Source: Candidatus Kapaibacterium sp. (GTDB lineage: Bacteria > Bacteroidota > Ignavibacteria > Kapaibacteriales > UBA2268). From it: a DNA stretch of 64,000 nucleotides. The notes under the pieces were generated by a model that ran no database searches, was not told the origin of the DNA, and saw only the letters and a program-made list of their open reading frames with translations. Below, piece by piece: positions 7,594-25,279 of the stretch (position 1 is its first letter; each line of letters opens with the position of its first letter). The stretch is from positions 1,440,001-1,504,000 of the forward strand of contig OY761611.1 in NCBI GenBank assembly GCA_963664875.1. The letters run 5' to 3'. A program made the translations under genes and the position numbers.

Positions 7594-7954
7594 CACATCA
7601 CATGTTTGATATGATTACATTAACAATACAAGAAAACGATATCCATTTAAAGATTGTATTTTTTAATTTTAAGGAGATTTGCTATGATATTGAAAGAACA
7701 TGCATCAAACAAGGGAAAGTACACTTCTATTGCTTACTTTATTCTGAACAAAGAACACTGCTAAGCAAAATAGCAAAGAAACTGGGAGAAGTTTATAGGA
7801 TTGACTTACGAGGTTCTATCTCCGAACTACGACAATAAGAATGGAGTAATAGAAATAATTCATTACAATATCGTGCATTCCAAGTCAATATAATGGAAGG
7901 ACTTTACAAGTAAATTAAGGAACTGTTGCACATAGTAAAGCTAGGAGATATATC

Positions 7955-8293: not shown

Positions 8294-8421
8294 TACACAA
8301 ATACCTTAAATCCTGATTTATTTAACACCCCATGAAAGATGGTGCAATACTATTTACTGCAATATGAACATATGAATATAAACTTTTCGCGAAAATCAAA
8401 TCAATAGCTAAAGGAATTACG

Positions 8422-9312
8422 ATGGAAAACATAATTTATATTATTCCGGTTTTAGCAATTATCATCATACTTTTATCCGGAATTAGAATTGTCAGACCTA
8501 CAGAAAGAGGACTGACAGAAAGGCTTGGTAAATATATCAAGTTTGCAAACCCTGGTTTCCACTGGATTATGCCTGGTATAGAAAAACTATACCGAGTGAA
8601 CATTACCGAATCAATGATTGATGCCGAACCACAGGAAATAATAACAAATGATAACCTCAATGCAAGAGTAGATGCACAAGTTTATTTCAGAGTTAAGAGT
8701 GACGAAGAAAGTGTCAAAAACTCAATTTATAATGTTAACAACTACGTTTATCAGATAGTGAACCTTGCAAGAACTACATTAAGAAATATAATTGGCACGA
8801 TGACCTTGAAATCAGCTAATAGTGAGCGAGGTAAGATAAATGCAGGTCTTCATAAAACTCTTTTAGAAGAAACCATCACTTGGGGTATAGAAATTGTCCG
8901 TACCGAATTAAAAGAAATTGACCCACCGTCAGATGTACAAGAAACGATGAATAAAGTAGTGAAAGCTGAGAATGAAAAAGTAGCTGCTGTAGATTTCGCT
9001 TCTGCAAGAGAAACAGTTGCAGACGGTGAAAAAAGAGCCAAGATAAAAGAAGCAGAAGGTTATCGTCAGTCAAAAATTCTTCATGCAGAGGGTGACGCTG
9101 CATCAATTAAACTTGTAAATGAAGCGGCTGACAAATACTTTACTGGTAACGCTCAGCTACTTAGAAAACTTGAAGCACTAGAAAATTCTTTGCAAAACAA
9201 TGCAACGATAATTGTACCTCAAGGATCAGAACTTGTAAATGTTATTGGTGAAATGGCTGGAGTTGTACCGATAAGAGTTAACAAATCACCTATATTTGGC
9301 AAGATAGATTAG
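8422..9312 (+). CDS. SPFH/band 7 (stomatin-like) membrane protein
   Basis: N-terminal TM, ERLGKY..PGFHW, QEIITNDN, RTTLRNIIG, WGIEIVRTE, coiled-coil tail. Confidence 0.92.
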   Translation: MENIIYIIPVLAIIIILLSGIRIVRPTERGLTERLGKYIKFANPGFHWIMPGIEKLYRVNITESMIDAEPQEIITNDNLNARVDAQVYFRVKSDEESVKNSIYNVNNYVYQIVNLARTTLRNIIGTMTLKSANSERGKINAGLHKTLLEETITWGIEIVRTELKEIDPPSDVQETMNKVVKAENEKVAAVDFASARETVADGEKRAKIKEAEGYRQSKILHAEGDAASIKLVNEAADKYFTGNAQLLRKLEALENSLQNNATIIVPQGSELVNVIGEMAGVVPIRVNKSPIFGKID

Positions 9313-9357
9313 ATTGAAAAACCATATAGAAACTAACTCTCATGATCAGGAACTTTT

Positions 9358-10434
9358 ATGAAATATGAAAAGTTAAAAAGACTCGCTACTGAGCGAAGCT
9401 ATCCATGTGTTACTATTTCAATGAATACACATAGAACACATCCCGATAATTCTAAAGATATTGTCGGGCTAAAAAACCATTTGTCAGAAGCAAAAAACCG
9501 AGTTATTCAAGAATTTGGAAAGCGGAATGTGATTGATTTACTTGAGAAAATAGAAAGCATAAGCAGTGAAATAGACCATAACTATAACCTAAATAGTTTG
9601 CATATATTTCTTTCGAAAAAAAGCAAAGAAATTGTCAGGTCACCTTTGAATATTCAGAATCATTCAGTCCATATATCGAATAGCTTTGCAATCAAACCAT
9701 TGATAAAAGCAATCAATCAAACTCAAGAATACTATATTCTTTTATTATCTCAATCAAGGGTTAAATTGCTTTACGCTATCAACGATGCTGCTTTGCTAGA
9801 AATATCAGATGATGATTTTCCACTTTCAGAAAACCTTCATTATATTTCAGATAAAAATAAATTAAGTGACGGGAAGCAAGTTGATAATATGGTACGTGAG
9901 TTTTTCAATAAGGTTGACAAAGCTATGGTGAAAATAACTAATAGGACAGGATGTATTTGTATTGTGATTGGCACCGAAGACAATTGCAGCCGGCTCTTGC
10001 AGGTTGCAGACAAACCATCGATATACTCCGGCTTTTCAGATATAAATTATAATGACTCTAGCGACCAGAGTTTAGCAGCACAAGCATGGCTTCTTGTAAA
10101 GGAATTGCACCATCAGTCAATTTGTAAGGCAGTCATTGAAATGAAGGATGCAATAGGCAAAGGAATCGCTATCACAAATTTATCTAATATATACAAGGCT
10201 GTAAAAGAAGGTAGAGGAGACCTGTTAATTACTCATAATAACTACTCTCAGGCTGTAAAAATGACAAACGGATTTTCATTTGAACCAACAAAGGACAATA
10301 CACAACCAGGAGTAATAGATGATATTATAAGTGAAATTGCCTGGGAAGTAATAGCTAGAGATGGGCGTGCCATATTTGTAGATCAAGATGATATTCTGAC
10401 ATTGAGTAATATATCATTGAAATTGCGATACTAA
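9358..10434 (+). CDS. Bacterial archaeo-eukaryotic release factor-like protein (baeRF3-type)
   Basis: PCVTISMNTHRTHPD N-terminus, FAIKPL..YYILLLSQ, AVKEGRGDLL, VIDDIISEIAWEVI..G C-terminus. Confidence 0.75.
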   Translation: MKYEKLKRLATERSYPCVTISMNTHRTHPDNSKDIVGLKNHLSEAKNRVIQEFGKRNVIDLLEKIESISSEIDHNYNLNSLHIFLSKKSKEIVRSPLNIQNHSVHISNSFAIKPLIKAINQTQEYYILLLSQSRVKLLYAINDAALLEISDDDFPLSENLHYISDKNKLSDGKQVDNMVREFFNKVDKAMVKITNRTGCICIVIGTEDNCSRLLQVADKPSIYSGFSDINYNDSSDQSLAAQAWLLVKELHHQSICKAVIEMKDAIGKGIAITNLSNIYKAVKEGRGDLLITHNNYSQAVKMTNGFSFEPTKDNTQPGVIDDIISEIAWEVIARDGRAIFVDQDDILTLSNISLKLRY

Positions 10435-10681
10435 TCCTTTTAGTTAAGAACTTGTATAGCAAATCTTCGTCGTATCTGAATTCATAAAGAATATCTATAA
10501 AACCTATCTCTGTAAAACTTGACATACAGGCAATATTACATTGAAAATATTATACTCTCTAAATTACAAGTAATAAATGCAACTTTGAGGTAAGACGTTA
10601 TCAAGGAAAAGCATATATTTTGTCAAAACAAGAGGGTTGCAATCGCACATAATCAAATAAAAGTTTAATTCTATAAACAAG

Positions 10682-11338
10682 GTGAAAATCGTGAAATATT
10701 CAAAACAATCACTTATGATTCTCTGTATGGGCTTTATAATTGCGACCATATTAACTGTAGGTTGCTCATCTACCGGGATGGAAAGATCTGAAAAGACATC
10801 TACAACTATGGAAGATATGGATAACGATCTAAAAATTGTTATCGCACAATTAAACATTACAGGCTCTTCCCTCGGAGCTCTAATGAGACCAAATCAACAA
10901 GAGATAAAAAAAACATTTGTTGCATTCTCAGAGAATGTTTCACAAATGGAAAATAAAGAAAAAGACTTCATTAAGCATGCTGAAGCAATGAAAAACCGAG
11001 GAAAAGAATACTTTACTGAATGGGAAAAAGAAGGTAATGAATATAAAAATCCGCAAATACAAGCGCTCAGCGAACAGAGGCGAGACGAACTAGGGACAAT
11101 TTATAATGAAATCGCTGCGAGTAGTATAGGAGTAAAAGAAGCATATAGAATTTACTTATCAGATATAAAAGAATTGCAAATTTATCTTTCAAATGACCTT
11201 ACCTCAAAAGGAATAGAAATGATTGTACCTGTTTCAAAAAAAGTAGTCAGCGATGGGGAGAATCTAAAATATTCCTTGATAGTACTTCAAAGAGCAATTG
11301 ACAAAGCCAGAGAAGAAATGTCTCAAAGTGGCAGATAA
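10682..11338 (+). CDS. Helical lipoprotein, DUF2959-like
   Basis: Lipobox LTVGC; EYFTEWEKE and YLSNDLT motifs; start may be the GTG at 10691. Confidence 0.7.
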   Translation: MKIVKYSKQSLMILCMGFIIATILTVGCSSTGMERSEKTSTTMEDMDNDLKIVIAQLNITGSSLGALMRPNQQEIKKTFVAFSENVSQMENKEKDFIKHAEAMKNRGKEYFTEWEKEGNEYKNPQIQALSEQRRDELGTIYNEIAASSIGVKEAYRIYLSDIKELQIYLSNDLTSKGIEMIVPVSKKVVSDGENLKYSLIVLQRAIDKAREEMSQSGR

Positions 11339-11434
11339 TATGTAGTGTACAATAACCTCTTTCTCTAATATTGGTAGTGTAAATTAAACTCTGTCTGTTT
11401 TATTTCTATAGAAGAAAACTCTGGGATGTGATTG

Positions 11435-11515
11435 TTAGAGATTCAACTTATTAAAAGCATCTGCATCTTTTACTGAAGCATCTCCAAATTTCAAAACTTT
11501 TAGACTAAGATTCAT
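11435..11515 (-). pseudogene. Truncated lysC 5' fragment (MNLSLKVLKFGDASVKDADAFNKLNL*)
   Basis: Copy of lysC codons 1-21 with KFGG changed to KFGD, then 5 unrelated codons and TAA. Confidence 0.85.
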
Positions 11516-11592
11516 AATCTTTACAAAATATTATAACAAATACGTTTAAACAAATGTATATCTTAGACTTGACTAATAAAAGAGATATTTTG
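11452..11592. repeat. Direct repeat copy 2 of the lysC upstream region/5' end
   Basis: Matches 6126-6266. Confidence 0.95.
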
Positions 11593-11634
11593 TAATTTTG
11601 TGAATGATTATAGACACGATCTTTGCTATTTCCC

Positions 11635-13074: not shown

Positions 13075-16000
13075 ATGAAATCTTTCTATACATCTTTAAT
13101 TGCACTTTTCTTATTCCTTAGCAGCAATGCTATTTTTGCTCAGAACAGTCCTGACTTTTTCAAAACTATACCGGTCATTGATGAAAATACTCCGGAATGG
13201 GCAAAGCTAATGTATTCTGATAATCCTAATGTACCAAAAGTTGAGAATTTGTATAAAGAATACTACAAAACGCATAAGTTTGTAAAAAATGTGCATACTC
13301 AAAATCACAAACATTGGCTCCGCATAGTAGAACCTCTTTTAGATAGTGATGGCTATATAAAACAAAAAAGCAGAAAAGAAGAAAACTTAGACCAGCAGAG
13401 ACTAAAGGACAGATTTCGTGAAAATACATTAAGTAGTGTCGGTAAAGCCTCCGGTTGGAGGGCAATGGGGCCATTTGAAACATTTAAAAAAAATACAACT
13501 TTGCCTATTTCCTGGCATAAAAATATTTATGCTATTGACCAATCCCTGTCTAATCCCAATATTCTTATCTGCGGCACTGAAGCCGGAGGGGTTTACAAAT
13601 CTATAGATAAGGCTGCCAACTGGGTTCTTATTTCAAAAGGCGAAGTATTTGCCGGTGGTAATTCCGCTGTAAAAATTCACCCTACCAATCCTTATAATTT
13701 CCTTGTTGCTTCCAACAGAAGAATATACCAATCCTTAGATGGTGGAGCAACATGGCAGGAACGTCATTATACCAATGGCGAAGGAAATGAATTCCAATAC
13801 TCCCCTGCTGATTCGAAAACAATCTTCCATACTTCAACTTCGGGTTTATTCAAAACCACAGATGGAGGAGGCACTTGGGAAAAGATTTTTTCAGAAAAGT
13901 GCTGGGATATTGACTTCCACCCTACAAACAACAATACTGCATATCTACTAAAAGCAAACGAACAGGCAAAAAGAAATGAATTTTTCAGAAGTACAGACGG
14001 TGGCAGTACCTGGGCTATACAGGATAATGGATTTTATGAACCTTCAGATTGGAATAATGCATCTAATTCCGGTGGCAAAATCGCTGTAACTCCTGCCTCT
14101 CCGGATCTTGTTTATGTTTGTCTGATAGGTAATTCCAAAGCAGATGACGATGGCTGGATTGGTGTTTACCGTAGCACTGACAAAGGTGAAAATTGGGTAA
14201 ATCCCGCAGGTCAAAACGGTGGCCCGTATGGAGCGATAAACTCACAAACTTCTGTTTGGAATGTCGCTGCTTATGACGGTGGTTATCATCAGGGCTTTTT
14301 CAATTTTGACTTAGAAGCCAGCAGTATAGACCCTAATAAAATATGGGTTGCTACAATTCGCCTTTCCGAATCGACAGACGGAGGGAAAACATTTACTTCT
14401 ATTGGTGCGGCAAACTCACAGCGCCTGTCGGATATTCATGCAGACGTGCAGGATATTGAAGTAAACGGCAATGATATTTGGGTCGCGTCCGATGGTGGTG
14501 TAAATTATTCAAACGATGAACTAAACTCCCACGTAGCTCTCAATAAAGGCATATTAGCCGCAGATTTTTGGGGTTTTAATACAGGTTGGAACGAAGACAC
14601 TTTTACCGGAGGCAAATACCACGACGGCACAAGTGGCTGGTACGAAGGTTACGGAACCGGAAATGCTTATAATATCGGTGGAGTCGAAGAAGCATCAGGC
14701 TATGTACACCCTATAGAAAGTAGAAAAATGCTTTTTAGAACACACTACAATAGTTCGAATACCACTGTGCTCACTATACCCGAAAAATTTGGTGAAACAA
14801 TAAAAAACAATCCTACTTTTCCTATCAGACCAAATGAATCATATAATACTGCTGAACGTAGTGGCGTTTATTTCGATCCGAGATATTCCAATCATATTTA
14901 TGTAGGTCTCGAAAATAAAGTTTATAAATCAACTGACGGCGGTGTCAATTTTGAAATATTATATTCTTTTCCGGGTGATGACGGTTTAGTGTATGAAATG
15001 GAAATCGCACGCAGCAATCCGGATGTAATATATGCTATTTATAATCCTAAAGGTACATATTGGGATCCTTGTGAAGTATGGAAAACTACAGACGCAGGCA
15101 AAAGCTGGAAGAAAACAGAAACAAACCCTGCGGGCAATAACAAACGTCTGCGTATCACTATCAATCCTGAAGATGAAAATGACATCTGGACCTGCACTCC
15201 GAGAGGAGAAGACGACGGCAGAGTAAGCTCTTCAAGTGATGGTGGCAAAACTTGGATTAATAGAACAACAAGCGTTTTGGACAAAGAAAATTTAAGAGAT
15301 ATCCTTTATCAGGGCGGAACTGATGACATAGTTTATTTAGTATCTCTAAATGGCGTTTACTATTGGGATAAAACTTCTGCAAACTGGATAGATTATTCTC
15401 AAGACTTACCTCTGATTGCAAACTCTCTGCAGATAAACCCGTTTTACAGAGATTCAGAATTACGACTTGCTTCAAGCGGCAGAGGCGTATGGGCTAGAAA
15501 AATGGTTGATACATTATTCAATCCGATAGCTCAGCCTATTACATATAATGATCTAATCGACTGTGCAAGAGATACTGTAAAATTTGACTGTTATTCTATA
15601 CTCAATCATGATGGCGCTAAATGGCAGTGGTCATTTTCTCCTGAACCTTTATATGTAAGCTCAAGCTCTGCAAGAAACCCAAAAGTTGTTTTTGGTGCCG
15701 AAGGACCTTATGACGTTAGCCTAACTGTTAAAGACAAACAAGGCAGATCAAGTACAAAAACTATTGAAAACATGATTACTGTTCGCAACCTCTGCGAACC
15801 TGATGATTTGGCAGGAAATGCTCTTAAGCTTTCAAAAGACGGCGATTACTTCGTATCTCCTGAACTAAACTTATCGAATATAACTCATTTCACAGCCACT
15901 GCCTGGATAAAACCAAACGGAGAGCAGGAGGGCTTTGCGGGCATAGTATCTAATGGCGAATGGTGCGCTCATTGCGACACACCAATCGGACTTATATTTG

Positions 16001-17511
16001 ATTATTATGGTGAAAAGCTATATTACAGATGGCCAAACGGTTCAGGTTGGGCAGGTAATAGCGGCATGACAGTCCCTTTAGACAAATGGTCTTTTGTTGC
16101 AATAACTGTTACTCCTGATTCAGTAACTCTATATCTGAATAATCAGCAGTGGGTTTCCAAAGTTTCTCTCAATCCGGTTGATTTGCCTCTTTTATACATT
16201 GGTGCGGGGCATTATTCAAGCTATTTCAAAGGGAACATAGACGAAGTTACAATCTGGAATCGTGCTCTCTCTCAATCTGAAATCAGAAACCTGAAACATC
16301 TTACTAAAAAAGATATAGTTGCAGACGACCCCGGCTTAGTAGCTTATTACCAATTTAATACTTTCTCCGGAGATGCCACTTATGACAATGCTCGCGGCAA
16401 TCATGGCTGGCTTTCAGGTGGTGCATCATTAGAGAATTCGACTGCTCCTGTCGGTCCCGGGACAAGCGAACTAATCACAATAGACAAAGCCGGTACTTTT
16501 ACATCAGAAACAACCGGAGTTGAGATTGAATTTGCTGATTCTAATCCGCAGGGAGATATAGTTATATCAAGATTGAATGTATTGCCGGATAGTCTTCCTA
16601 ACACAAATCCTTCTATCAGAAATTATTGGATAATCAATAACTACGGTAGCGGAGATTTTGATGCTATAAAAAATATCAAATTTGCATCCTCTGCCGGTTA
16701 TCCAATTGGCACACCTGCAGATGCAAAGCTTTTTGTTAGAGACGAATATGAACATTTGAACAGCTGGGATGATTTATGTGGTGCGAGTAACTACGACGAT
16801 AATACTTACCACTATAGAGACTTTTGTGGCTTAACTAATACTCATCAATTCTTTATCCAGTCACGAAATCAGTCGGACATACATAAATGGTTTGCGGTGC
16901 AGAATATTGATACTACAATTTGCTCTTATGAAAGTATTTTTCTTGCCGGCGAGTGGCGAGACACACCGGGAGTCTATATCGACACCGTAAATATTTCTCC
17001 GGCTCTCGATAGCGTATATATTACTTCGCTCACAATCGCCGAGGTGGATACGACTGTAACACTCGAAGAAGCTACATTAACTGCACACGCTACAAAAGCA
17101 GAATACCAATGGATAGACTGCTCAACTATGCAGCCTATTCCGAGCGCAACTGCAAATACTTTCACCGCAGAAGCTGACGGAAACTATGCGGTTGAAGTTA
17201 TTCAATATGGCTGTGCAGATACTTCTTCCTGCTATGCGGTAAACGTATCGGGAGTGTTAGAGAGCAATTTTAATTATAAAATCAGTCTCTTCCCTAATCC
17301 GACTGATGGAAAAATCAGCATTGATTTAAGCATTCCATATCAAAATATCGAATGTAAAATTTACAATGCGACAGGACAACTAATAGACACCGAAGCATTC
17401 AGTAACATAAGCCAAATTAATTACACACTCGAAGGAGCTACGGGCTACTATCTCATAGAAATTAGCAGCTCGGATGGTAAGAAAGCTGTTTTGAAGGTGC
17501 TGAAGAAGTAA
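13075..17511 (+). CDS. Secreted BNR/VPS10-like beta-propeller + PKD + LamG protein with T9SS type A sorting domain
   Basis: Many S/T-x-D-G-G-x-T-W Asp-boxes, PKD-like GPYDVSLTV, LamG FKGNIDEVTIWNRALS, C-terminal LFPNPT...YYLIEI...KVLKK. Confidence 0.88.
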   Translation: MKSFYTSLIALFLFLSSNAIFAQNSPDFFKTIPVIDENTPEWAKLMYSDNPNVPKVENLYKEYYKTHKFVKNVHTQNHKHWLRIVEPLLDSDGYIKQKSRKEENLDQQRLKDRFRENTLSSVGKASGWRAMGPFETFKKNTTLPISWHKNIYAIDQSLSNPNILICGTEAGGVYKSIDKAANWVLISKGEVFAGGNSAVKIHPTNPYNFLVASNRRIYQSLDGGATWQERHYTNGEGNEFQYSPADSKTIFHTSTSGLFKTTDGGGTWEKIFSEKCWDIDFHPTNNNTAYLLKANEQAKRNEFFRSTDGGSTWAIQDNGFYEPSDWNNASNSGGKIAVTPASPDLVYVCLIGNSKADDDGWIGVYRSTDKGENWVNPAGQNGGPYGAINSQTSVWNVAAYDGGYHQGFFNFDLEASSIDPNKIWVATIRLSESTDGGKTFTSIGAANSQRLSDIHADVQDIEVNGNDIWVASDGGVNYSNDELNSHVALNKGILAADFWGFNTGWNEDTFTGGKYHDGTSGWYEGYGTGNAYNIGGVEEASGYVHPIESRKMLFRTHYNSSNTTVLTIPEKFGETIKNNPTFPIRPNESYNTAERSGVYFDPRYSNHIYVGLENKVYKSTDGGVNFEILYSFPGDDGLVYEMEIARSNPDVIYAIYNPKGTYWDPCEVWKTTDAGKSWKKTETNPAGNNKRLRITINPEDENDIWTCTPRGEDDGRVSSSSDGGKTWINRTTSVLDKENLRDILYQGGTDDIVYLVSLNGVYYWDKTSANWIDYSQDLPLIANSLQINPFYRDSELRLASSGRGVWARKMVDTLFNPIAQPITYNDLIDCARDTVKFDCYSILNHDGAKWQWSFSPEPLYVSSSSARNPKVVFGAEGPYDVSLTVKDKQGRSSTKTIENMITVRNLCEPDDLAGNALKLSKDGDYFVSPELNLSNITHFTATAWIKPNGEQEGFAGIVSNGEWCAHCDTPIGLIFDYYGEKLYYRWPNGSGWAGNSGMTVPLDKWSFVAITVTPDSVTLYLNNQQWVSKVSLNPVDLPLLYIGAGHYSSYFKGNIDEVTIWNRALSQSEIRNLKHLTKKDIVADDPGLVAYYQFNTFSGDATYDNARGNHGWLSGGASLENSTAPVGPGTSELITIDKAGTFTSETTGVEIEFADSNPQGDIVISRLNVLPDSLPNTNPSIRNYWIINNYGSGDFDAIKNIKFASSAGYPIGTPADAKLFVRDEYEHLNSWDDLCGASNYDDNTYHYRDFCGLTNTHQFFIQSRNQSDIHKWFAVQNIDTTICSYESIFLAGEWRDTPGVYIDTVNISPALDSVYITSLTIAEVDTTVTLEEATLTAHATKAEYQWIDCSTMQPIPSATANTFTAEADGNYAVEVIQYGCADTSSCYAVNVSGVLESNFNYKISLFPNPTDGKISIDLSIPYQNIECKIYNATGQLIDTEAFSNISQINYTLEGATGYYLIEISSSDGKKAVLKVLKK

Positions 17512-17568
17512 AAATATATATTTTATAGCAAAGCTGCTTAGGAATTGTTTCCTGAGCAGCTTTGTTTT
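17443..17568. repeat. Direct repeat copy 1: last 23 codons of the T9SS protein + terminator
   Basis: Matches 19516-19644. Confidence 0.9.
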
Positions 17569-17570
17569 TT
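17528..17570 (+). terminator. Intrinsic terminator
   Basis: gcaaagctgcttagga-attgtt-tcctgagcagctttgt followed by a T run. Confidence 0.85.
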
Positions 17571-17585
17571 AAGAATTTGGTTTCC

Positions 17586-17608
17586 CACCCATACACCACT
17601 TGCAGAAC
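17586..17608 (-). repeat. Fragment of the phosphatase 3' end (VLQVVYG)
   Basis: 19-bp identity with 21012-21030 plus two synonymous codons (gtt ctg vs gtc ttg). Confidence 0.7.
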
Positions 17609-17615
17609 GTAAACT

Positions 17616-17843
17616 CTATTTTACAACAGAAATTCCGCTTAATGTCGGAATAACAGACAGTATGTGTTTGTCTCCTTTTCTGTCAACTTCAATTTTTATA
17701 ATTGGTGTTTCGCTATCTGAAGTCTCAATAGTTTCGATTTTGGGTTTAAAGCATCTATCTATTTTATATAACTTTTGTTTAGTTGATTCCATATAAAGGT
17801 AATTTAGAAATTCTTGGTGGAAGATCAGTTTAAGAAACTGCAT
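17616..17843 (-). pseudogene. Probable gene remnant / small hypothetical protein
   Basis: 75-aa ORF; the C-terminal half looks protein-like; no recognisable family. Confidence 0.3.
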
Positions 17844-17871
17844 CTGTTTATAAATGCTGTATCGTTATGCT

Positions 17872-19266
17872 CTACTCAATGCCTATCCCATGTTTCTCTA
17901 ACAGCTCTCGGATACTTTCAGACCAGGTGCCACTATCCCAAATGCTTTTTCTTTGTTGCATTATTTCTTTTAAGCTAATGTTTGTTTCTGAGTATTTAAA
18001 AGACAATAGAGTATTAGCAATATGAAAAATATCATATTTAGTAGTATTTACTCGCAATCTGCTCAGTAAATTATCAGTTGTCTTCGAAAGATGATTCGAC
18101 TCTATGCAGTCAAGAAATGGTTTAAGTTCAAGAAAATCAGCCGATAATACATTTTTATTACAAATTGTAATTAGCTTTTCAGCATCATGAATTGCGATAG
18201 TTTGAAGCATCAAAGGAAGGATTAATTCATCTGTTCCATAATTATAGTCAATTTCAATTAGATTGAATTTATCATCAGAAAGTAGCCCCTTCACAAATGA
18301 CTCAGATGCCTTTTCTGGATTCTGAGCAATAAATTTTTGAGTTATTGTGTAATCAATTGTCTTTTTTTCTTCCCAAATTTTTAAGATCATATCTTTGTAT
18401 AAAGGGCAGTAATTTTTGATTAGAGCTTTGTCTAAGTTTGTTATTTGTTCTAATGTGCAACTATGGTAAATTTCAGATAAGACATTTAAAGCGGCAGTAT
18501 CCTGGAAGCTAGACAGAGCTATAAAATAATCTAGAGATTTTTCTTCTGATTTGAAGCTTAATAAAAAATTCCAAAAACCTTCATCAGGAAAATATGATAT
18601 CGCTTCAAAAGATTCTTTTCCTTGTGATATAAAAAATGGAATATCTTCTTTATTTCTATACTTAGCTAAAGCTATCAGAGGATTAGTATTCCATTCTACT
18701 TCGGCAAGTTTTTTTATTCTGTCATAAGTTTTTGGATTTGCTTTGTTATTCTCCAATGCATATATCATGACAAATACATCTTTATCAGAATAAAGTAAGA
18801 GACTGTCCATTTTAGCAATTTGAGATTGAAAAAATATGCTGTCTTGATCTGTAATTTCAAATAAGTGCCCCTGAGATTGAATTCTAAAGTATAGTGTGCT
18901 TGCAATATGAAAATCACCACCTATACATACCCGTTGGTAATGTACCATCTCATCAGTTGCTAAAAATTCAGCAAAAATATCACTTAAAAATGGATATTTC
19001 CTATCTGCAAGAGCCCAGCCTGCGTATGCTTTAACCACGGAATTTGTATTTTTAAGTAATGTCTTTAGTTCTTCAATAGAAGCAGAATCTCTTAGTTTCT
19101 CATAATGTTTATATTGTTCAGAAGGTGACCCCATGTCTACAGTTTCATATTGCAATTCGTTACATTTTGCAATTGTATCTATTTGGTTTTGTATCTCAGG
19201 TCTAATTCTCTTCGCAAAAGCAGTCGAAGTATAGAGCATCAATAGGATTATCAAAATTGGCTTCAT
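17872..19266 (-). CDS. Exported alpha-helical (HEAT-like) hypothetical protein, paralog A
   Basis: Signal peptide; ELKTLLKNTNSVVKAYAGWAL HEAT-like motif; alignable end to end with 23577-24977. Confidence 0.75.
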   Translation of the reverse strand: MKPILIILLMLYTSTAFAKRIRPEIQNQIDTIAKCNELQYETVDMGSPSEQYKHYEKLRDSASIEELKTLLKNTNSVVKAYAGWALADRKYPFLSDIFAEFLATDEMVHYQRVCIGGDFHIASTLYFRIQSQGHLFEITDQDSIFFQSQIAKMDSLLLYSDKDVFVMIYALENNKANPKTYDRIKKLAEVEWNTNPLIALAKYRNKEDIPFFISQGKESFEAISYFPDEGFWNFLLSFKSEEKSLDYFIALSSFQDTAALNVLSEIYHSCTLEQITNLDKALIKNYCPLYKDMILKIWEEKKTIDYTITQKFIAQNPEKASESFVKGLLSDDKFNLIEIDYNYGTDELILPLMLQTIAIHDAEKLITICNKNVLSADFLELKPFLDCIESNHLSKTTDNLLSRLRVNTTKYDIFHIANTLLSFKYSETNISLKEIMQQRKSIWDSGTWSESIRELLEKHGIGIE

Positions 19267-19404
19267 ATATCAGTTATATATTTTCTAAATCACTTTTAAA
19301 TATAAAACAATATAACAAACTTGTAATAAATATGAAGACAAAATTCTATAAAGTTTGTTCAAATAATCCTATATTCCATAAACACTTTAAAAGAGGACGT
19401 TATC

Positions 19405-19584
19405 ATGGCTATGTATATAGACGGCTTCGCTTTCCCTATTCCTAAAGCTCATTTAGATGAATACAAAGAGGTGGTGGATAAAGTTGCCGAAATCTGGAAA
19501 GAATATGGCGCAACTGGCTACTATCTCATTGAAATTAGCAGTTCAAACGGCAAGAATGCTGTTTTGAAGGTGCTGAAGAAGTAA
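19405..19584 (+). pseudogene. Chimeric 59-aa ORF: DUF1428 (YbaA-like) N-terminus fused in frame to the T9SS tail
   Basis: MAMYIDGFAFPIPKAHLDEYKEVVDKVAEIWKEYGATGYYLIEISSSNGKNAVLKVLKK; agagga RBS; just below the ORF-track cutoff. Confidence 0.75.
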
Positions 19585-19644
19585 ATACATATATTTTTAA
19601 TAAGCAAAGCTGCTTAGTAATGGTTTCCTGAGTAGCTTTGTTTT
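19516..19644. repeat. Direct repeat copy 2: T9SS tail + terminator
   Basis: Matches 17443-17568; hairpin gcaaagctgcttag...ctgagtagctttg retained. Confidence 0.9.
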
Positions 19645-19659
19645 ATAAATCCTTAATCA

Positions 19660-20292
19660 TTACACCGCACCTTCACCTTTTATTACAGCAGGTATTGTTT
19701 TTAGTATAATCTCAAAATCAAGCGAAATTGAAAACCTTCGGATATACTCTATATCATATTTCATCATGTATTCTGCTTTTGTATTGTTTTTCCTGTCCTT
19801 GATTTGCCACAGACCTGTCAAACCGGGCTTAACTGATGAACGAATTTTACTAAATTGAGGCAATTTACTCAACATATCTGGAACTAAAGGGCGAGGACCT
19901 ACAAAACTCATGTCTCCTCTTAGAATATTGAAAAGCTGAGGCAACTCATCTAAACTTGATTTCCGTAAAAATGAACCCACTGGAGTAACACGTCTATCTT
20001 TAGAAGATTTATTCAGTTTGCTATCTGAATGATTGTATTCTAAAGTGCATTTGTCTATATACATAGATCTGAATTTATACATATAAAATCGCTTTTCACT
20101 TTTACCAATACGTTCTTGTAAAAACAGAGCAGATCCTTTTGAGGTCAACCTTATTGCAATAATGATTGCAATTATTAATGGTGATAAGATGAGTATCAAG
20201 AAGAGCGAGATGATAAAATCCAACACTCGTTTTAAAACAAATTGGGATTTCTTTGAGGATTGTATGTCTGTATTAATATCCAGTACCAGCAT
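19660..20292 (-). CDS. Bacterial sugar (phosphoglycosyl) transferase, WcaJ/PglC-like
   Basis: KRVLDF, YKFRSM, FLRKSSLDELPQLFNILRGDMSFVGPRP, KPGLTGLWQ. Confidence 0.93.
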   Translation of the reverse strand: MLVLDINTDIQSSKKSQFVLKRVLDFIISLFLILILSPLIIAIIIAIRLTSKGSALFLQERIGKSEKRFYMYKFRSMYIDKCTLEYNHSDSKLNKSSKDRRVTPVGSFLRKSSLDELPQLFNILRGDMSFVGPRPLVPDMLSKLPQFSKIRSSVKPGLTGLWQIKDRKNNTKAEYMMKYDIEYIRRFSISLDFEIILKTIPAVIKGEGAV

Positions 20293-20359
20293 ATACTCTT
20301 TCTCTCAATAATTCTGGATTATTGCTCAAATATATAAACACATCATAATAAAAAACGTC

Positions 20360-21352
20360 TCATATATTTCTAAATAACTTTTTTAATATTTCATTCAACT
20401 CTTCCGCTCGGTTTAAAATCATAAAGTGCCCACCTTTCAGAATTGTCACATTGCATTCTACAAAACACAATGGTAAAATTCTATCACTAGTGCCGTGTAT
20501 TTGAAAGAGATTTTGCGGATGAGTTCTGTTCTTCCACACAACTACTTTATCAATAGCCCATTTTAGAAATATTGGGTCGGTATCAATCAGGATTTGTTTA
20601 AGTAAGTATTTATCAAAGCTTGAACTGACTCCGAAAAACCAATTATTTATATAGTTCGCACTCTTCAAGAAACTTGTTGGTAAAAGTCTGTGAAGCCTCA
20701 AACGCCCAACTATACGGAAATAAAACGGAATTTCTCTTTTTGTCTTAGCGGAAGAAATTAGGATTACTTTTTCAGTTTCAATTTGTTTCGCTACTTCGAC
20801 AGCGACAATCCCACCAAAGGACAAGCCAATTAGTATAGGCTTTGGTGTTTGTATCTGAGCAAGAAGTCTTTGTGCATATTGTTGTAAAGTTTCATTCTTC
20901 AGTGGCTCGATCCATTTCACATGTATAACAGAATAGCCTGATAAATCAAGTTTTTGAAAAACTCTTTCATCAGCCCCAAGCCCACTAAATATATACACTT
21001 GCTTCATTACACACCCATACACCACTTGCAAGACGCCGTTAATCCCCTCAGTCAGCAATTCGATAAGCTCTTCATCCATGTATTCGTAGTCGTCGGGAAT
21101 ATGTAGAATTTCTACTTGTGGTAGCTCCAAGTGCAGGAACTGACTTGATAGTTTGGAGCGCTGATTGGATTCCATAACAAAAATCAGGTCAGCCCAATTT
21201 ACATCTTTCTCGGAAACTTTCCTCTCACTTTGCGGACTAAGCCCGGCAGAACGAATATAAAACCGACTATCATTCCTGAAAATCGATTCGGCAGTTCTGC
21301 TACGCTTTTTGTTGCGTCCGCAGATTACTAATATGTTTGGTTTTTGGTGCAT
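20360..21352 (-). CDS. Low-molecular-weight protein tyrosine phosphatase-like domain fused in frame to an alpha/beta hydrolase (hydrolase alone: 20360-21007)
   Basis: CGRNKKRS (CX5R) and IPDDY; then MKQVYIFSGLGAD, GLSFGG nucleophile elbow, HGTSD, GGH. Confidence 0.85.
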   Translation of the reverse strand: MHQKPNILVICGRNKKRSRTAESIFRNDSRFYIRSAGLSPQSERKVSEKDVNWADLIFVMESNQRSKLSSQFLHLELPQVEILHIPDDYEYMDEELIELLTEGINGVLQVVYGCVMKQVYIFSGLGADERVFQKLDLSGYSVIHVKWIEPLKNETLQQYAQRLLAQIQTPKPILIGLSFGGIVAVEVAKQIETEKVILISSAKTKREIPFYFRIVGRLRLHRLLPTSFLKSANYINNWFFGVSSSFDKYLLKQILIDTDPIFLKWAIDKVVVWKNRTHPQNLFQIHGTSDRILPLCFVECNVTILKGGHFMILNRAEELNEILKKLFRNI

Positions 21353-21364
21353 GGTGGCTATATT

Positions 21365-22594
21365 TTATTCCTCAATCCATCCAACAATACTTGAAAGCCA
21401 ATTAATCTCTATCTCAGTCCATTTTTGTGTTATGTTGTTCCACACCAAAACTCCTTTAGGATAGCCAAGATTGGAGCCCACATCACCATAAGCTACACTA
21501 AAGAATCCATCGGTTGTTTTAGAACCATAGTCGCACCAAACTCTTCCAATTTCTTTGTTTTGGTATTTAATAATTCTACCGTATTCGGGATTCATCTCGA
21601 CTTCAATTGAAAAATTAAAGCCGGAATTTTTAAACTTAAAGTACCTATCTTTTTTATCTTCTACTTTAATATCATAAGTTCCTTTGCTACAAACGAAGAT
21701 GATACTTCCATCAGAATCTGAATAAAAATAGGCATTAGAACAAGCTAAAGGAATCGAATCAATTTCCATGATAATTTCAGAGCTTCTTGATTTAATATTG
21801 AATTTGTGAATTATGGCAGTAGCAGTACCTTCATCTTCGAATAGTTCTAATCTATCTACTATTTTTGCTAATACAGTATCTCTACTTTTAGATTCTTTAA
21901 ACATTAAAGCCGGTTCTTCAATATTGGAATCTATAGACTCAAAAGATACATAAAGAAAATTTTCATTATCAAACCAGCAAAGAGGAACCTTCGGGAAAAC
22001 AGAAGAATATATCGACATTGGAGTACCAATTCCACAATCACTAATAATGATTGTATCTTGATTATAAGTCGAATCATAAAGTAGTAGCTCAGATGAAAAA
22101 GGGGTTCGTTCAAATTCCAATCCCCATTTATGATTTGGAGAGAGAATTCCTCTCAATTTTAAGCCCGCATAATCTTTGACTTTTTCATAATATTTCTTAT
22201 TTAGGTCATAAATATAGTATTCTGTATATTCCGGGGAGAAAAATTTATAGAAAATGAGACTATCTCCTCTGGTTTCATACAGACGACTCCGTTCTCTTTT
22301 CAGCATCAACTTGGTTTGAATATCAATAATGTGTCCTACCGGTGTGATAACATATCTATCTTTATAAAGCAAACTATTTTTAAGTTCATAATTAGTGATT
22401 CTGGAAGTTACATCAAGAATGGTATCTTTAGAAGTCAGTCTTCCATCAGCAAAGTGATATAGGACAAGGTTAACGTAATCTCCAGTACCTCTATCCTTTG
22501 TATCATATTCAGCCACAATTAAAGAGTTATGCCTATGCACGCTTGCAAAACACGTGCTAATTAAGACTAATCCTATTATTATGTATTTAAGCAT
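21365..22594 (-). CDS. Exported hypothetical protein (beta-rich)
   Basis: 409-aa ORF with signal peptide; aggag upstream. Confidence 0.7.
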   Translation of the reverse strand: MLKYIIIGLVLISTCFASVHRHNSLIVAEYDTKDRGTGDYVNLVLYHFADGRLTSKDTILDVTSRITNYELKNSLLYKDRYVITPVGHIIDIQTKLMLKRERSRLYETRGDSLIFYKFFSPEYTEYYIYDLNKKYYEKVKDYAGLKLRGILSPNHKWGLEFERTPFSSELLLYDSTYNQDTIIISDCGIGTPMSIYSSVFPKVPLCWFDNENFLYVSFESIDSNIEEPALMFKESKSRDTVLAKIVDRLELFEDEGTATAIIHKFNIKSRSSEIIMEIDSIPLACSNAYFYSDSDGSIIFVCSKGTYDIKVEDKKDRYFKFKNSGFNFSIEVEMNPEYGRIIKYQNKEIGRVWCDYGSKTTDGFFSVAYGDVGSNLGYPKGVLVWNNITQKWTEIEINWLSSIVGWIEE

Positions 22595-22625
22595 AGGTAT
22601 TTTGCTCCTAATTCCTATAGATTAA

Positions 22626-22658
22626 GCAGATTACAAGTATGTTTGGTTTTTGGATCAT
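22626..22658 (-). pseudogene. Phosphatase 5' fragment (MIQKPNILVIC)
   Basis: Matches 21320-21352 with 4 nt differences. Confidence 0.8.
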
Positions 22659-22743
22659 GGTTTTTAAATATTCTACAACACTTATAGCTTGTAGAAATTT
22701 TACACAGGATTTTAAATCAACGAAGGAACTTTGATTAATTTGA

Positions 22744-23364
22744 CTAATTTAGAGAGACAAAGCCAAAACCAAAGTCATCGTCTTTGTTTATCATCTCATT
22801 TTTTACTTTTTCGTACTCTTCTTTTGTGATATATCCTCCTTGGAATAATGCTGACAATCTTTCAAGTCCGTCTAATTTGGACATATTGTATTTCTTGTTA
22901 ATTTCAACACTCTCGAATTCTTCTTTCTTAGTATAAATCAGTTTTATAAAATCATTTACTGCATCTTCAGAAGGAATTTTTTTATAGAAAAAAAGCCAAT
23001 TAGGGTATTTAGCTAGTACATATATATTTTTGATTGAAATATAAAATTTAAAGGCAGTGAAGGACAAAAACGAGAGCACTAAAATAAAATTTCCAAGAAA
23101 TTTCTCGTCTGATGTATTAAAAGCAATCAGCAGAGTCCACAGAAAACACAAAACACACCCGAAAAGCCACCATTTTGAATATGTAATTTCTTTCTCCGGA
23201 TCATTCAAAATGGATTTAAACTGCAAAGCATACTCTTTCTCAGTAAAGAGCGTTTTGTATTCCACATGAACACCTTCGTGGTAGATGGTGCTTGTGATTT
23301 TGTGAAATAACCTCTTTTGCAGTATCTGATAATTTTCTTTCATATATTCTGACATTGTAAACAA
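22744..23364 (-). CDS. Two-TM membrane protein with C-terminal SHOCT-like domain
   Basis: Two hydrophobic helices; LDGLERLSALFQGGYITKEEYEKVKNEM; true start may be a downstream Met. Confidence 0.7.
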   Translation of the reverse strand: MFTMSEYMKENYQILQKRLFHKITSTIYHEGVHVEYKTLFTEKEYALQFKSILNDPEKEITYSKWWLFGCVLCFLWTLLIAFNTSDEKFLGNFILVLSFLSFTAFKFYISIKNIYVLAKYPNWLFFYKKIPSEDAVNDFIKLIYTKKEEFESVEINKKYNMSKLDGLERLSALFQGGYITKEEYEKVKNEMINKDDDFGFGFVSLN

Positions 23365-23451
23365 AACACACTATAATATAAAAATATATTAGTGATAATT
23401 AAATATTTTTTTGCATCAAACAATAATTCTAAACTACATTTAAGTTCTATA

Positions 23452-23553
23452 TCAATTATAAAACCGACTATCATTCCTGAAAATCGATTCGGCTGTTCTG
23501 CTTCGTTTTTTGTTACGTCCGCAGATTACTAATATGTTTGGTTAGTTGTTCAT
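23452..23553 (-). pseudogene. Phosphatase 5' fragment (MNN*PNILVICGRNKKRSRTAESIFRNDSRFYN*)
   Basis: 23457-23543 matches 21256-21342 (87 bp) with 4 differences, all synonymous. Confidence 0.9.
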
Positions 23554-23576
23554 AAAGCTAATCGCAGGATTCATCT

Positions 23577-24977
23577 TTATACCCCTTCAATTTCTATAGA
23601 ATATTCTTTGAAAAGATGTCGAAAACTTTCCGACCAATTTCCCCAATCCCAAAACTGTTGATTGTTTTTCAATATTTCTTGTAATTCTAAATTTGTCTCT
23701 TTGTTCTTGAAAGATAATAGAGTTTTAGAAAGATGAAATATTTCAATAGCCTGATTGTCTCCTCTTAATCTATAAAGCATATTTGGTATGCTTTGCGAGA
23801 ATTGTTTAGCGATAATAACTTCAATAAATGGTACTAAATGGACTGACTTTGCAGTTAAAACATTCTTACAGCATATCGAAAGAAGCAAGTCATCATTATG
23901 TTTACTTATTGTCTGAAGCATAAATAAAATCAACTCATCAATTCTATGATATTGATTAAACTGTAGAAGATTAATATCTTTATCTATCAATAGTCCTTTT
24001 GCAAAAGACTTGGAAGCTTTTTCAGGACATTCGACACTTAGTTTATTAGCAACTGAAAAGTCGATTGTTTTATGCTCTTCCCATATCTTTAATATAAGAT
24101 CCTGGTATAAAGAGCAATAATTTTGAATTAGAGCTTTGTCCAAATAGTTTATTTGAAGAGTGTCACATGTCAGATATATTTCAGTCATTACTTCCAAAGC
24201 AGATACATTTTTAAAACTAGAAACTGCTAAGAAATAATCATACGACCTCTCTGTCGATTTATAGCTTAAAATAAAATTCCAAAAAGCACTATCAGGGAAC
24301 ACTGATATAGCTGAAAAAGAATTTGTGCCATGATCCATCAAGAACTGAATATCATCTCTATCTTTATATTCAGCAAGAGCAACAAGTCCAGGAATATTAT
24401 TGGGTTCAGCGGCCAATTCTCTGATTCTATAATATGTTTTAGCATTACCTTTGTTATTTATTAAGGCTTCATATTTAAGACTAGTTTCTATATTAGAATA
24501 CAGAATAACACTATCCATCCTTTCAAGTTGGATTTGAAAATATAAACTGTCATTTTCCGAAGAATTCGAATTTATCTTTTGATTCAAAAGTCTATAATAC
24601 AATCCTGTTGAAATCTCACTTTCTGAAACACGACAACCATACCCAGTTATAACACTATATCTTTGCTTCAAGAAGGTAGAAAAAATATTACTCAAATCAG
24701 GATACCGATTATCCAATAAAGCCCAGCTGGCATAGGCCTTCACTGCAGAATTCTTATATTCTATAAGAGCGAGCAGCTCTTCAATAGATGCTTTATCTCT
24801 TAGTTCTTCAAATAATTTATAAATTTCAGTAGTTCTGCCGCTTGTTCCAACTTGCTGTGAATGCAAGACATTAAACTGTTCCAATTTTTGAACAATCGCT
24901 TTTATTTCAGGTCGGATTTCTTGACCTGATAATGTGTAGCTACAAAACAGCATAATTGTAATCAAAAGATTCTTCAT
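23577..24977 (-). CDS. Exported alpha-helical (HEAT-like) hypothetical protein, paralog B
   Basis: Signal peptide; shares IRPEI, ASIEEL, VKAYA.WAL, LDKALI.NYC.LY.D.ILKIWEE.KTID, WSES with paralog A. Confidence 0.75.
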   Translation of the reverse strand: MKNLLITIMLFCSYTLSGQEIRPEIKAIVQKLEQFNVLHSQQVGTSGRTTEIYKLFEELRDKASIEELLALIEYKNSAVKAYASWALLDNRYPDLSNIFSTFLKQRYSVITGYGCRVSESEISTGLYYRLLNQKINSNSSENDSLYFQIQLERMDSVILYSNIETSLKYEALINNKGNAKTYYRIRELAAEPNNIPGLVALAEYKDRDDIQFLMDHGTNSFSAISVFPDSAFWNFILSYKSTERSYDYFLAVSSFKNVSALEVMTEIYLTCDTLQINYLDKALIQNYCSLYQDLILKIWEEHKTIDFSVANKLSVECPEKASKSFAKGLLIDKDINLLQFNQYHRIDELILFMLQTISKHNDDLLLSICCKNVLTAKSVHLVPFIEVIIAKQFSQSIPNMLYRLRGDNQAIEIFHLSKTLLSFKNKETNLELQEILKNNQQFWDWGNWSESFRHLFKEYSIEIEGV

Positions 24978-25243
24978 CTTCTATTCTTATTCTCTAAATA
25001 GCAATCTATCAATATAATAAAATCTCTCATTATTAAACTTATATATTCACTAAGAAACAGGAGCTAATTATCTTCGGTTGGGTGGTCTTCCAATCAGAGG
25101 CAATACGCGATAATGCCAACCCAAAAGTTCCTCCAAACATAAAAATCGCAGAATCAATTGCCCCCCTCTCTAACCAAGCAATTCGCCTAATATTTGATGC
25201 CGGCAGAATGATATACGACGGCTTGAAATCAATAGTGGAGTTG

Positions 25244-25279
25244 AAAAAGACAAGGCAACTTATGACTAAGCTGCCTTGT
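25244..25279 (-). terminator. Intrinsic terminator of the VIT-VWA gene
   Basis: acaaggcagctta-gtca-taagttgccttgt then ctttttc on the minus strand. Confidence 0.8.

Follow-up and report, generated by a model that had tools for sequence, protein, structure and literature searches.

The 64,000-nucleotide stretch of the Candidatus Kapaibacterium sp. chromosome analysed here, referred to as the window, contains an interval in which intact genes alternate with broken copies of gene ends (Table 1). The LMW-PTP-like phosphatase is the main anchor of this array; its reading frame continues into an alpha/beta hydrolase, and the related genome L002 has the two as separate genes. Self-blastn of the whole window, combined with base-by-base comparison, bears out the four gene-end copies listed in the initial annotation, each oriented as its intact parent, with the T9SS copy starting at 19507 rather than at 19516. 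Three further broken gene pieces, overlooked in that annotation, lie among the four copies: a DUF1428 5' piece, a DUF1428 3' piece, and a DUF3781/LprI-like chimera. The repeats vary in length and often span a start or stop codon, leaving the target gene whole, and they enclose 1.9 kb between the 142-bp repeats, 5.2 kb between the 150-bp repeats, and single genes between phosphatase 5' repeats of 36-97 bp. The core-gene part of the window (34601-64000) holds no direct repeats at E<=0.01.

Table 1. Genes, gene-end copies, and inserts of the array and of the lysC duplication; the fourth column gives each repeat pair with its length and identity.
Feature	Position	Strand	Repeat pair	Basis
lysC, intact copy: upstream region with 5' end	6126..6275	-	6126-6275 and 11452-11601, 150 bp, 91%	
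Low-GC (0.315) 5.2-kb insert: AraC, cupin, SPFH, baeRF3, DUF2959	6276..11451	.		Pfam
lysC upstream region and 5' fragment	11452..11601	-	as above	
T9SS-sorted BNR/Vps10-LamG-PKD protein, intact, 1478 aa; tail is an anchor	13075..17511	+		Pfam
T9SS tail (last 25 codons) and terminator-like hairpin, copy alpha	17434..17572	+	17434-17572 and 19507-19648, 142 bp, 87%	Inverted repeat 17529-17564
Phosphatase 3' fragment with 19 exact bp and some flank, lying downstream of parent	17586..17609	-	21012-21030 and 17586-17604, 19 bp, exact	Simulations
75-aa chimeric ORF, DUF3781 5' end (~7 codons) and LprI-like gene 3' end	17616..17843	-		
464-aa hypothetical protein, hydrophobic N-terminus; cargo of T9SS-tail insertion	17872..19266	-		
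DUF1428 5' fragment, in-frame fusion with T9SS tail copy	19405..19506	+		Pfam PF07237, profile 1-38 of 102
T9SS tail and terminator, copy beta	19507..19648	+	as copy alpha	
Bacterial sugar transferase	19660..20292	-		Pfam PF02397
LMW-PTP-like phosphatase (21014-21352), intact, read through into alpha/beta hydrolase	20360..21352	-		
409-aa hypothetical protein, hydrophobic N-terminus	21365..22594	-		
Phosphatase 5' fragment C, first 11 codons	22626..22661	-	21320-21355 and 22626-22661, 36 bp, 89%	
SHOCT-domain membrane protein, 206 aa, with an L002 homologue	22744..23364	-		
Phosphatase 5' fragment B, ~33 codons; matching ATG at 23553	23457..23553	-	21256-21342 and 23457-23543, 87 bp, 95%	
466-aa hypothetical protein; unnamed family, mostly Bacteroidota	23577..24977	-		
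Decayed DUF1428 3' fragment and terminator hairpin (25250-25279)	25069..25279	+		Aligns with L014 DUF1428 3' end

The 19-bp copy of the phosphatase 3' end, which reads in frame as the phosphatase C-terminus, has a blast E of 0.08; it is nevertheless taken as above chance because the longest exact repeat stopped at or below 18 bp in 600/600 Markov simulations of 7.9 kb, with 19 bp reached in 0/600. Copy beta of the T9SS tail carries 8 silent and 2 non-silent differences, retains a 28-bp identical run at the stop codon, and meets the DUF1428 5' fragment at an illegitimate joint (19506/19507). The chimeric ORF is a microhomology deletion scar and not an anchor: its two parts join at a microhomology of about 13 bp, and the parent genes adjoin in L002 (16296-16565 and 16919-17779). 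The lysC fragment contains a 68-bp identical run (p=0.003) followed by a diverged, decayed coding end, and it is altered at two near-invariant residues (G in 102/102 and T in 101/102 homologues), which excludes a fresh functional allele and indicates that the fragment has long been in decay. The genes bordering the copies had been described as unrelated, which fails for the 464-aa and 466-aa genes; their products are homologous (46% amino acid identity), although in a quick-version tree they do not come out as sisters. Each of these two genes lies head-to-head with a DUF1428 piece, the arrangement expected if they were alleles of a single interval.

Pfam scans of window ORFs (29+20) and 56 intergenic frames identified no recombinase, transposase, or integron integrase, in agreement with the earlier statement that no local integrase is present. 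The window has a single tRNA, at 39280, beyond which an Rfam scan of the window returned nothing. Restriction-modification genes were absent from the repeat-flanked cargo according to Pfam and from 8 window proteins according to PADLOC. A tblastn search of plasmids with the phosphatase yielded 10 records, all at or below 63% identity, while a promoter scan was uninformative, with 41 sites against 38 expected.

Variability among related genomes

Genes of the locus are common to three related genomes (L001, L002, and L014), which represent different species, their phosphatases being 78-86% identical in DNA. The two long relative contigs, L001 and L002, exhibit another gene order and gene-end copies of their own, which upholds the proposed variability of the locus. 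L001 keeps the guaA-side and T9SS flanks, L002 carries the T9SS gene on the opposite side, and orthologues of the T9SS protein adjoin the same gene pool in both. Homologues of the 409-aa gene are found beside the phosphatase in L001 and elsewhere in the array in L002. GNAT and DUF1428 genes act as additional anchors in the relatives, a mini-DUF1428 occurs twice in L002, identically deleted, and a defence-type TIR gene has been captured in a relative. A Mutator-family transposase is located at the far end of the L001 locus, outside the repeat-flanked inserts. Exact empty sites of the window were not found in L001, L002, or L014, from a collection with one genome per species, nor was a circle or a conspecific strain encountered. 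Protein-level end fragments number 6 in 105 kb of this lineage versus 1 in the 1,338 kb covered by 78 other loci, which are unmatched for variability and whose one fragment is a doubtful ORF in Neisseria repeats. The permissive, variable interval of this Kapaibacterium-like chromosome, from a little-studied bacterial group, is a genuine accretion hotspot.

Polarity, silent sites, and joints

At 9/9 joints, including that of the 19-bp piece, 5' pieces are found upstream of the intact gene and 3' pieces on its downstream side (p=0.002). Automatically detected gene-end repeats display the expected polarity in 8/8 cases in the window, L001, and L002 (p=0.004). Across all 81 sequences, the automatic count gave 17 conforming and 11 violating rows; all 11 violations fall outside these three sequences, are excluded from the 8/8, and on visual inspection were put down to intergenic repeats that overlap spurious ORFs (attC-like units in L005, Neisseria repeats) or a paralogue cluster (L037). 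Differences between copy and parent are silent at 69/113 sites over 9 pairs, compared with an expected proportion of about 0.22, and 17/24 differences on the fragment branch are silent; the differences being mostly silent, the copies are alleles from other lineages and more than mere decayed duplicates. Fragment B differs from its parent at four sites within codons 5-32; each change is silent and agrees with the allele of L002. Mismatch clustering was significant in 2/8 pairs tested; among window pairs, it was not significant for phosphatase fragment B (p=0.17) or the T9SS tail (p=0.07), phosphatase fragment C and the 3' piece being too short for the test.

The inner joints are sharp and occur at differing codons. 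Phosphatase 5' breaks fall near codons 11, 26, 33, and 83 and 3' breaks near codons 64, 86, and 107, while the T9SS tail pieces retain the last 25 versus at least 73 codons. A fixed att core or fixed break point is absent, given that breaks lie tens of codons apart and that inspection by eye of 11 inner joints revealed no common motif.

The one diagnostic event belongs to L001. The body of its T9SS fragment is of the window-allele type at 34 sites versus 6, the 74-bp identical core agrees with the resident L001 gene at 15 sites versus 0 (Fisher p=5e-9, body versus core), and the phosphatase piece across the joint is window-type at 7 sites versus 0, the donor type being defined by a single reference allele. 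Later gene conversion could also produce such an identical core. Foreign-type sequence flanks the joint on either side, which makes it donor-to-donor. From sequence comparison, the event is consistent with integration of a donor circle through a single crossover within a short gene end.

Growth of the array

On balance, the hotspot appears to have grown as foreign genes were inserted repeatedly by recombination at ordinary gene ends, each event leaving a broken spare end. Entry of the first copy of a foreign gene is still debated. For the array itself, we lean towards a stacking of alleles from related lineages through circle-like single-crossover integration at gene ends; the window's own events are compatible with circle integration, short of proof. 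Initially, as one L001 event indicates, a piece of a relative's chromosome, extending from inside a conserved gene end to a random point, would be closed by an illegitimate joint, either as a circle or as the equivalent tandem-duplication junction. After transfer, the piece would recombine by a single crossover within 30-120 bp of the gene end common to donor and host, which would render this patch identical in both copies, keep the target intact, and leave the broken end beyond the cargo. Repetition at the phosphatase 5' and 3' ends, the T9SS tail, and the lysC 5' end, and at GNAT and DUF1428 anchors in relatives, all visible as anatomy, would generate nested arrays in which old fragments may be reused as anchors. 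Subsequently, microhomology deletions, seen once, would wear the array down to chimeric gene ends. The recombination machinery is assumed to be host homologous recombination, with no dedicated recombinase.

A bolder version, which we regard as rather unlikely, would credit this lineage with unusually efficient integrase-free capture, whereby chromosomal circles recombine across species at 30-75 bp patches and fragments become new landing sites. Since each fragment would be a new landing site, the array would seed its own growth, as the mini-DUF1428 pair of L002 suggests, and, if true, it would represent a functional equivalent of an integron made from ordinary gene ends.

Among the alternatives, homology-facilitated illegitimate recombination (HFIR) would have linear donor DNA recombine via a long anchor (lysC, the T9SS gene, or the phosphatase plus downstream genes), while the free end of the donor is joined to the recipient by an illegitimate event slightly inside the anchor, stranding the recipient gene end. 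The same polarity and silent-site divergence are predicted by this model, which has been put forward for the T6SS immunity arrays of Vibrio and for strings of Rhs orphans (PMC5361080), and the phosphatase 5' events are indistinguishable from it. It is nonetheless unlikely to explain the array, as the L001 joint, foreign-type on both sides where the intact gene's tail is not, is the opposite of its prediction. Nor would it lead one to expect the lysC pattern, in which the non-coding upstream region is nearly identical while the adjoining coding part has diverged, and HFIR is described as removing, not duplicating, recipient DNA (PMC3240628).

Similarly improbable is a scheme without a transferred circle, in which microhomologies give rise to a local tandem duplication, one copy is then exchanged for a relative's allele by double crossover in the manner of minimal mobile elements, and deletions follow. 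Merodiploids made by transformation are documented (PMC3784515), exchange through conserved flanks is reported to be common (PMC3787668; PMC2617782), deletion scars exist in the array, and the joints of the T9SS tail with the DUF1428 5' piece and with the phosphatase 3' piece have the form of tandem-duplication junctions. This scheme, however, predicts that the sequence flanking the joint is resident-type on either side, unlike that observed in L001, and the 464-aa and 466-aa proteins are not close sisters (best relatives 52% and 80% identical, respectively). A duplication arising in the donor would merge this scheme with circle-like integration.

An integron cassette remnant (CALIN), or site-specific elements targeting gene ends with an integrase encoded elsewhere, appears very improbable, even though the cargo resembles cassettes, a relative of the phosphatase in the Paludibacter locus L005 adjoins an attC-like repeat array, and guaA, a common island target, lies 5 kb from the array. 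A covariance model derived from the Paludibacter locus L005 detected 9 sites in L005 but 0 in the window, L001, L002, and L014; as it also detected 0 in 15 other loci, the model is narrow. In addition, no integrase was found in the window, at least five different target genes are used, break points vary, and the cargo occupies both strands. A separate attC pattern scan was discarded, having missed the positive control L005. Finally, the source may be a metagenome assembly, but a chimera of strain variants can be practically dismissed, as the window's own proteins are on a 3.83-Mb contig, like architecture with other break points recurs on independent 3.28-Mb and 1.35-Mb contigs, and the copies are 77-97% identical, some of them decayed.

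Circle-like integration thus remains the favoured reading. The initial interpretation is supported in part, by the variability among relatives, the scar polarity, the foreign alleles, the failure to find a local integrase, and one event in a relative that bears the signature of a short-end crossover. Gene ends do show the crossover signature of homology anchors in one L001 event, while other pieces, exemplified by the DUF3781/LprI-like chimera, are deletion scars.

Relation to known gene-acquisition systems

The anatomy of the locus matches insertion with long target duplication, which was reportedly first described by Nobusato in 2000. The proposal of an undescribed mechanism is not supported, as long variable target duplications (Furuta, Abe, and Kobayashi 2010, PMC2853133) and, as laboratory precedent, single-crossover integration of trimmed circles (PMC3240628) have already been published; the locus is a dense natural instance of an already known, still unexplained integrase-free gene gain. 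The shared features described in PMC2853133, where the mechanism is offered as a hypothesis, include inserts below 20 kb, long, variable, and imperfect direct repeats above 30 bp that often contain a start or stop codon, an intact target, no other mobile element, and possible gene fusions at the joint. The cases described there are single events with restriction-modification cargo, which was the search criterion, whereas here the cargo is mostly exported or membrane hypotheticals, the events are nested and recur at several adjacent gene ends in related species, and one joint is donor-to-donor with an identical core.

In the E. coli system, trimmed and recircularised DNA partly duplicates a gene end by one circle crossover: partial duplication occurred in 56/60 clones of the HFIR assay, which the authors interpret as the product of single crossovers with trimmed circles, with duplications of 109-950 bp in 14 sequenced clones (PMC3240628). 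That assay employed a laboratory plasmid with identical homology, whereas this locus involves natural chromosomal DNA with alleles that are 65-95% identical, used repeatedly. The locus retains many scars across several related genomes, and its three countable signatures, namely the polarity of the pieces, their divergence at silent sites, and a donor-to-donor joint that carries an identical core, jointly tell circle integration from long-anchor HFIR by sequence alone and could be applied genome-wide. The process also makes in-frame gene fusions, such as a secretion-signal tail on a new N-terminus.

The T6SS immunity arrays of Vibrio and the strings of Rhs orphans (PMC5361080) likewise grow sequentially without an integrase beside a conserved gene and leave stranded ends, and their authors liken HFIR-built arrays to integrons. 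Those arrays, as described, involve a long anchor, a displaced effector domain, and one toxin system; here, ordinary genes serve as anchors, the target stays whole, and the sole diagnostic joint is donor-to-donor. Many bacterial gene-acquisition hotspots are reported without integrase or tRNA (PMC2617782), and both these and minimal mobile elements (PMC3787668) resemble the present locus in variable content spread by homologous recombination. Both are described as swapping content by double crossover without gene-end duplication, whereas content is added here and the scars are kept. The label "integron-like", applied initially, holds as an analogy and no further: like integrons and CALIN, the array consists of ordered, small, unrelated genes, the newest presumably beside the anchor, with an order shuffled between genomes, but it differs from them in that no integrase or attC-like site was found here, both strands are used, and the break points are unfixed.

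Gene-end copies in the window

Self-comparison of the whole window recovered all four same-orientation gene-end copies listed in the initial annotation, together with the lysC duplication, and every pair is a direct repeat. The 19-bp exact copy of the phosphatase 3' end exceeds chance, as 0 of 600 Markov simulations reached 19 bp. Direct repeats at E<=0.01 are absent from the core-gene part, 34601-64000. The accompanying claim that no recombinase, IS or tRNA att site is visible agrees with the searches: Pfam scans of 49 ORFs together with 56 intergenic frames detected neither recombinase nor transposase, and the sole tRNA lies 14 kb from the array. The observation is confirmed, and three more fragments extend it. 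The 75-aa ORF is a deletion scar, since its two parent genes adjoin each other in the related locus L002. With hypothetical genes named by length in amino acids, the order in the window is 466, phosphatase 5' piece, 206, phosphatase 5' piece, 409, phosphatase.

Features of the array and of related loci (pairs with identities are from self-comparison and alignment)
Locus	Feature	Position	Remarks
Window	lysC pair	6126-6275 / 11452-11601	91% identity
Window	Low-GC insert between lysC repeats	6276-11451	AraC, cupin, SPFH, baeRF3, DUF2959 genes
Window	T9SS tail + terminator pair	17434-17572 / 19507-19648	87% identity
Window	Phosphatase 3' end pair	21012-21030 / 17586-17604	19 bp exact
Window	Phosphatase 5' end pair (B)	21256-21342 / 23457-23543	95% identity
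Window	Phosphatase 5' end pair (C)	21320-21355 / 22626-22661	89% identity
Window	DUF1428 5' piece	19405-19506	In-frame fusion to T9SS tail copy
Window	DUF1428 3' piece	~25069-25250	Decayed
Window	75-aa ORF		DUF3781 gene start + LprI-like gene end, joined at ~13-bp microhomology
Window	Unnamed ~465-aa family genes	17872-19266, 23577-24977	Mostly Bacteroidota (49 matches); window copies without Pfam match, weak HEAT-repeat lead
Window	Phosphatase reading in frame into alpha/beta hydrolase	20360-21352 (-)	Hydrolase retains own ATG near 21007; two overlapping genes in L002
Window	Very low-GC genes flanking guaA (GC 0.29, 0.27 pair)	29011-30084, 32341-33924	357-aa protein without assignment; 527-aa NERD/SEC-C protein
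Window	23S rRNA-IVP family four-helix gene	30113-30472	
L001	Mutator-family transposase	648-1913	Just beyond guaA-side boundary
L001	HNH gene	2970-3662	
L001	Internal GIY-YIG-like fragment, 57 bp	4732-4789	Upstream of parent; neither gene end reached
L001	409-aa homologue	8798-9927	Broken by stop or frameshift
L001	TIR-domain gene (PADLOC PDC-S35 match) + pentapeptide-repeat gene	11695-15350	Between intact GNAT and its 3' copy
L002	Two DUF1428 copies	11036-11203, 12562-12729	87.5% identical, same internal deletion; flank 336-aa gene + phosphatase 3' piece; apparently a pseudogene reused as anchor
L005 (Paludibacter MAG)	Nine attC-like repeats, ~140 bp	1-9116	Between cassette-like genes upstream of phosphatase; looks like an integron cassette array
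L016	Persicobacter phosphatase with ~150-bp insert	10001-10474	Insert recurs at 18760-18909; likely a small mobile repeat

The same gene pool in relatives

Relatives were taken from one genome scan with the phosphatase as query, of which the best 80 of 191 loci were kept; the closest three among these by phosphatase identity are L001 (88%), L014 (84%), and L002 (80%). The window proteins lie on a 3.83-Mb contig, L001 on one of 3.28 Mb, L002 on one of 1.35 Mb (Candidatus Kapaibacterium sp.), and L014 on a short contig. Named homologues of lysC belong for the most part to Candidatus Kapabacteria or Kapaibacterium (52-56% identity), an approximate placement of the host. The T9SS gene, encoding a T9SS-sorted 1478-aa protein, and the 409-aa gene are common to the window, L001, and L002; L002 further shares the 206-aa gene and the hydrolase, L001 shares SnoaL and a GIY-like gene, and L014 shares a VIT-vWA gene and DUF1428. 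The order in L002 is 409, 137, 206, 312, 5' piece, 294, phosphatase, hydrolase, mini-DUF1428, 336, 3' piece, mini-DUF1428. L001 carries 409 ahead of the phosphatase without a 5' piece; downstream come a 417-bp copy of the GNAT 3' end (97%) and a T9SS tail copy whose partner at the joint is a decayed 3' piece of the phosphatase. In L014, a decayed phosphatase, truncated at codon 83, lies ahead of the VIT gene.

Since the relatives share genes in differing order and with pieces of their own, the locus is variable and its architecture is no artefact of a single assembly. Aligned across these relatives, which are different species, it differs in gene order and content, but no exact empty site for any window insert exists in L001, L002, or L014. 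Between species, homology stops close to where genes start, no more than 30-45 bp from the fragments, a weak test because this is expected anyway at such divergence.

Proposed integration at short gene ends and its rivals

The reading given somewhat better than even chances is that the variable array grew by single-crossover integration of donor circles at short gene ends. The T9SS event in L001 tells the models apart. Over its first 141 nt, the tail fragment shares 85% identity with the window allele and 65% with the resident gene of L001 (informative sites, 34 window-type versus 6 L001-type); the 74 nt that follow match this resident gene exactly (15 sites versus 0; Fisher p=5e-9), and the phosphatase piece across the joint, the illegitimate junction at the fragment's inner end, is window-type (7 sites versus 0). 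Because of these counts, both sides of the joint are foreign, a donor-to-donor joint, and donor and resident swap across a short identical core, the pattern expected from one crossover between a donor circle and the resident tail. Homology-facilitated illegitimate recombination (HFIR) through a long anchor predicts the opposite and is unlikely. The terminator behind the intact T9SS gene of L001 resembles that of the window (77%) and the one behind the fragment far less so, a weak indication, as this may be the ancestral state.

In single-crossover integration, the L001 circle would have contained tail, terminator, cargo, and a piece of the next gene, and one crossover with the resident tail, presumably by host recombination on transferred DNA, would leave an identical core with donor and resident flanks exchanged. 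In the window, 17573-19506 would be a relative's version of the T9SS gene-to-DUF1428 interval, stacked ahead of the resident version, because each of 464 and 466 faces a DUF1428 piece head-to-head; the two share 46% identity and do not group as close sisters in a quick tree. The 206 and 409 genes would then have been added one after another at the phosphatase start. Other identical runs are 68 bp beside the diverged end of the lysC pair (p=0.003), 28 bp at the stop codon of the T9SS pair (p=0.07), and 37 bp in phosphatase pair B (p=0.17); six of the eight pairs put to the mismatch-clustering test do not discriminate, and identical cores could also arise from later gene conversion. The suggestion of the initial annotation that gene ends serve as short homology anchors is the best reading, with one diagnostic event, located in a relative. 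What the sequences show directly is the anatomy, the polarity described below, the allelic origin of the fragments, a single donor-to-donor joint, and a single deletion at a microhomology; the circles, the sequence of insertions, the part played by host recombination, and the transfer route are inferences.

In all eight automatically found gene-end repeats of the window, L001, and L002, a 5' piece lies upstream, or a 3' piece downstream, of its whole parent gene (p=0.004), and with the 19-bp piece 9 of 9 joints conform (p=0.002). Whole-gene duplicates in decay would violate this polarity in about half of cases, an insertion duplicating the target end in none. At other loci this automatic count listed 9 rows that conform and 11 that do not, the latter being intergenic repeats or paralogue clusters as judged by eye. 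Over 9 pairs, 69 of 113 copy-to-parent differences are silent, against a fraction of ~0.22 expected; among changes assigned by outgroups to the fragment branch, 17 of 24 are silent (9 of 13 once the largest pair is left out). It follows that the fragments, after splitting from the resident gene, belonged to working alleles, except that the lysC fragment, having lost two near-invariant residues, has decayed. Duplication with allelic replacement is also unlikely, if anything slightly more so than HFIR.

Remains of a cassette array or site-specific element are improbable, since the inner joints, sharp and with no common motif by eye, fall at a different codon in each event, and an attC-like-repeat model built from L005, which finds 9 sites there, has 0 matches in the 16 remaining sources, among them the window, L001, L002, and L014, a narrow test. 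The outer boundaries lie at start codons or terminators. An assembly artefact is scarcely credible, given that related architecture recurs in the relatives' loci.

End fragments at >=70% protein identity number 6 in 105 kb (window, L001, and L002); the 78 loci elsewhere, 1,338 kb in total, yielded a single one, which lies on a doubtful ORF, the loci being unmatched for variable regions. A lineage-specific self-seeding capture pathway, the most far-reaching of the readings, is a tentative and unlikely proposition.

Comparison with known systems

In the literature covered, which takes in few subscription journals, neither nested gene-end accretion with cargo other than restriction-modification (RM) genes in this lineage nor a donor-to-donor joint test was found. 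The initial annotation had proposed an undescribed mechanism, but the class is already described (PMC2853133, PMC3240628). Related cases include T6SS immunity arrays without integrase, explained by HFIR (PMC5361080), minimal mobile elements and integrase-less hotspots (PMC3787668, PMC2617782), merodiploids made by transformation (PMC3784515), small variable segments (PMC2884548), and repeat-mediated deletion (PMC3119063). In its working, the window array resembles insertion with long target duplication, a class defined by inserts <20 kb that lie between repeats >30 bp and carry no further mobile element; the repeats frequently extend over a start or stop site, most cases come from naturally competent species, and one gene fusion is reported (PMC2853133). 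It falls outside that definition because its cargo lacks RM genes. The single-crossover circle reaction proposed here has been reported in E. coli (PMC3240628).
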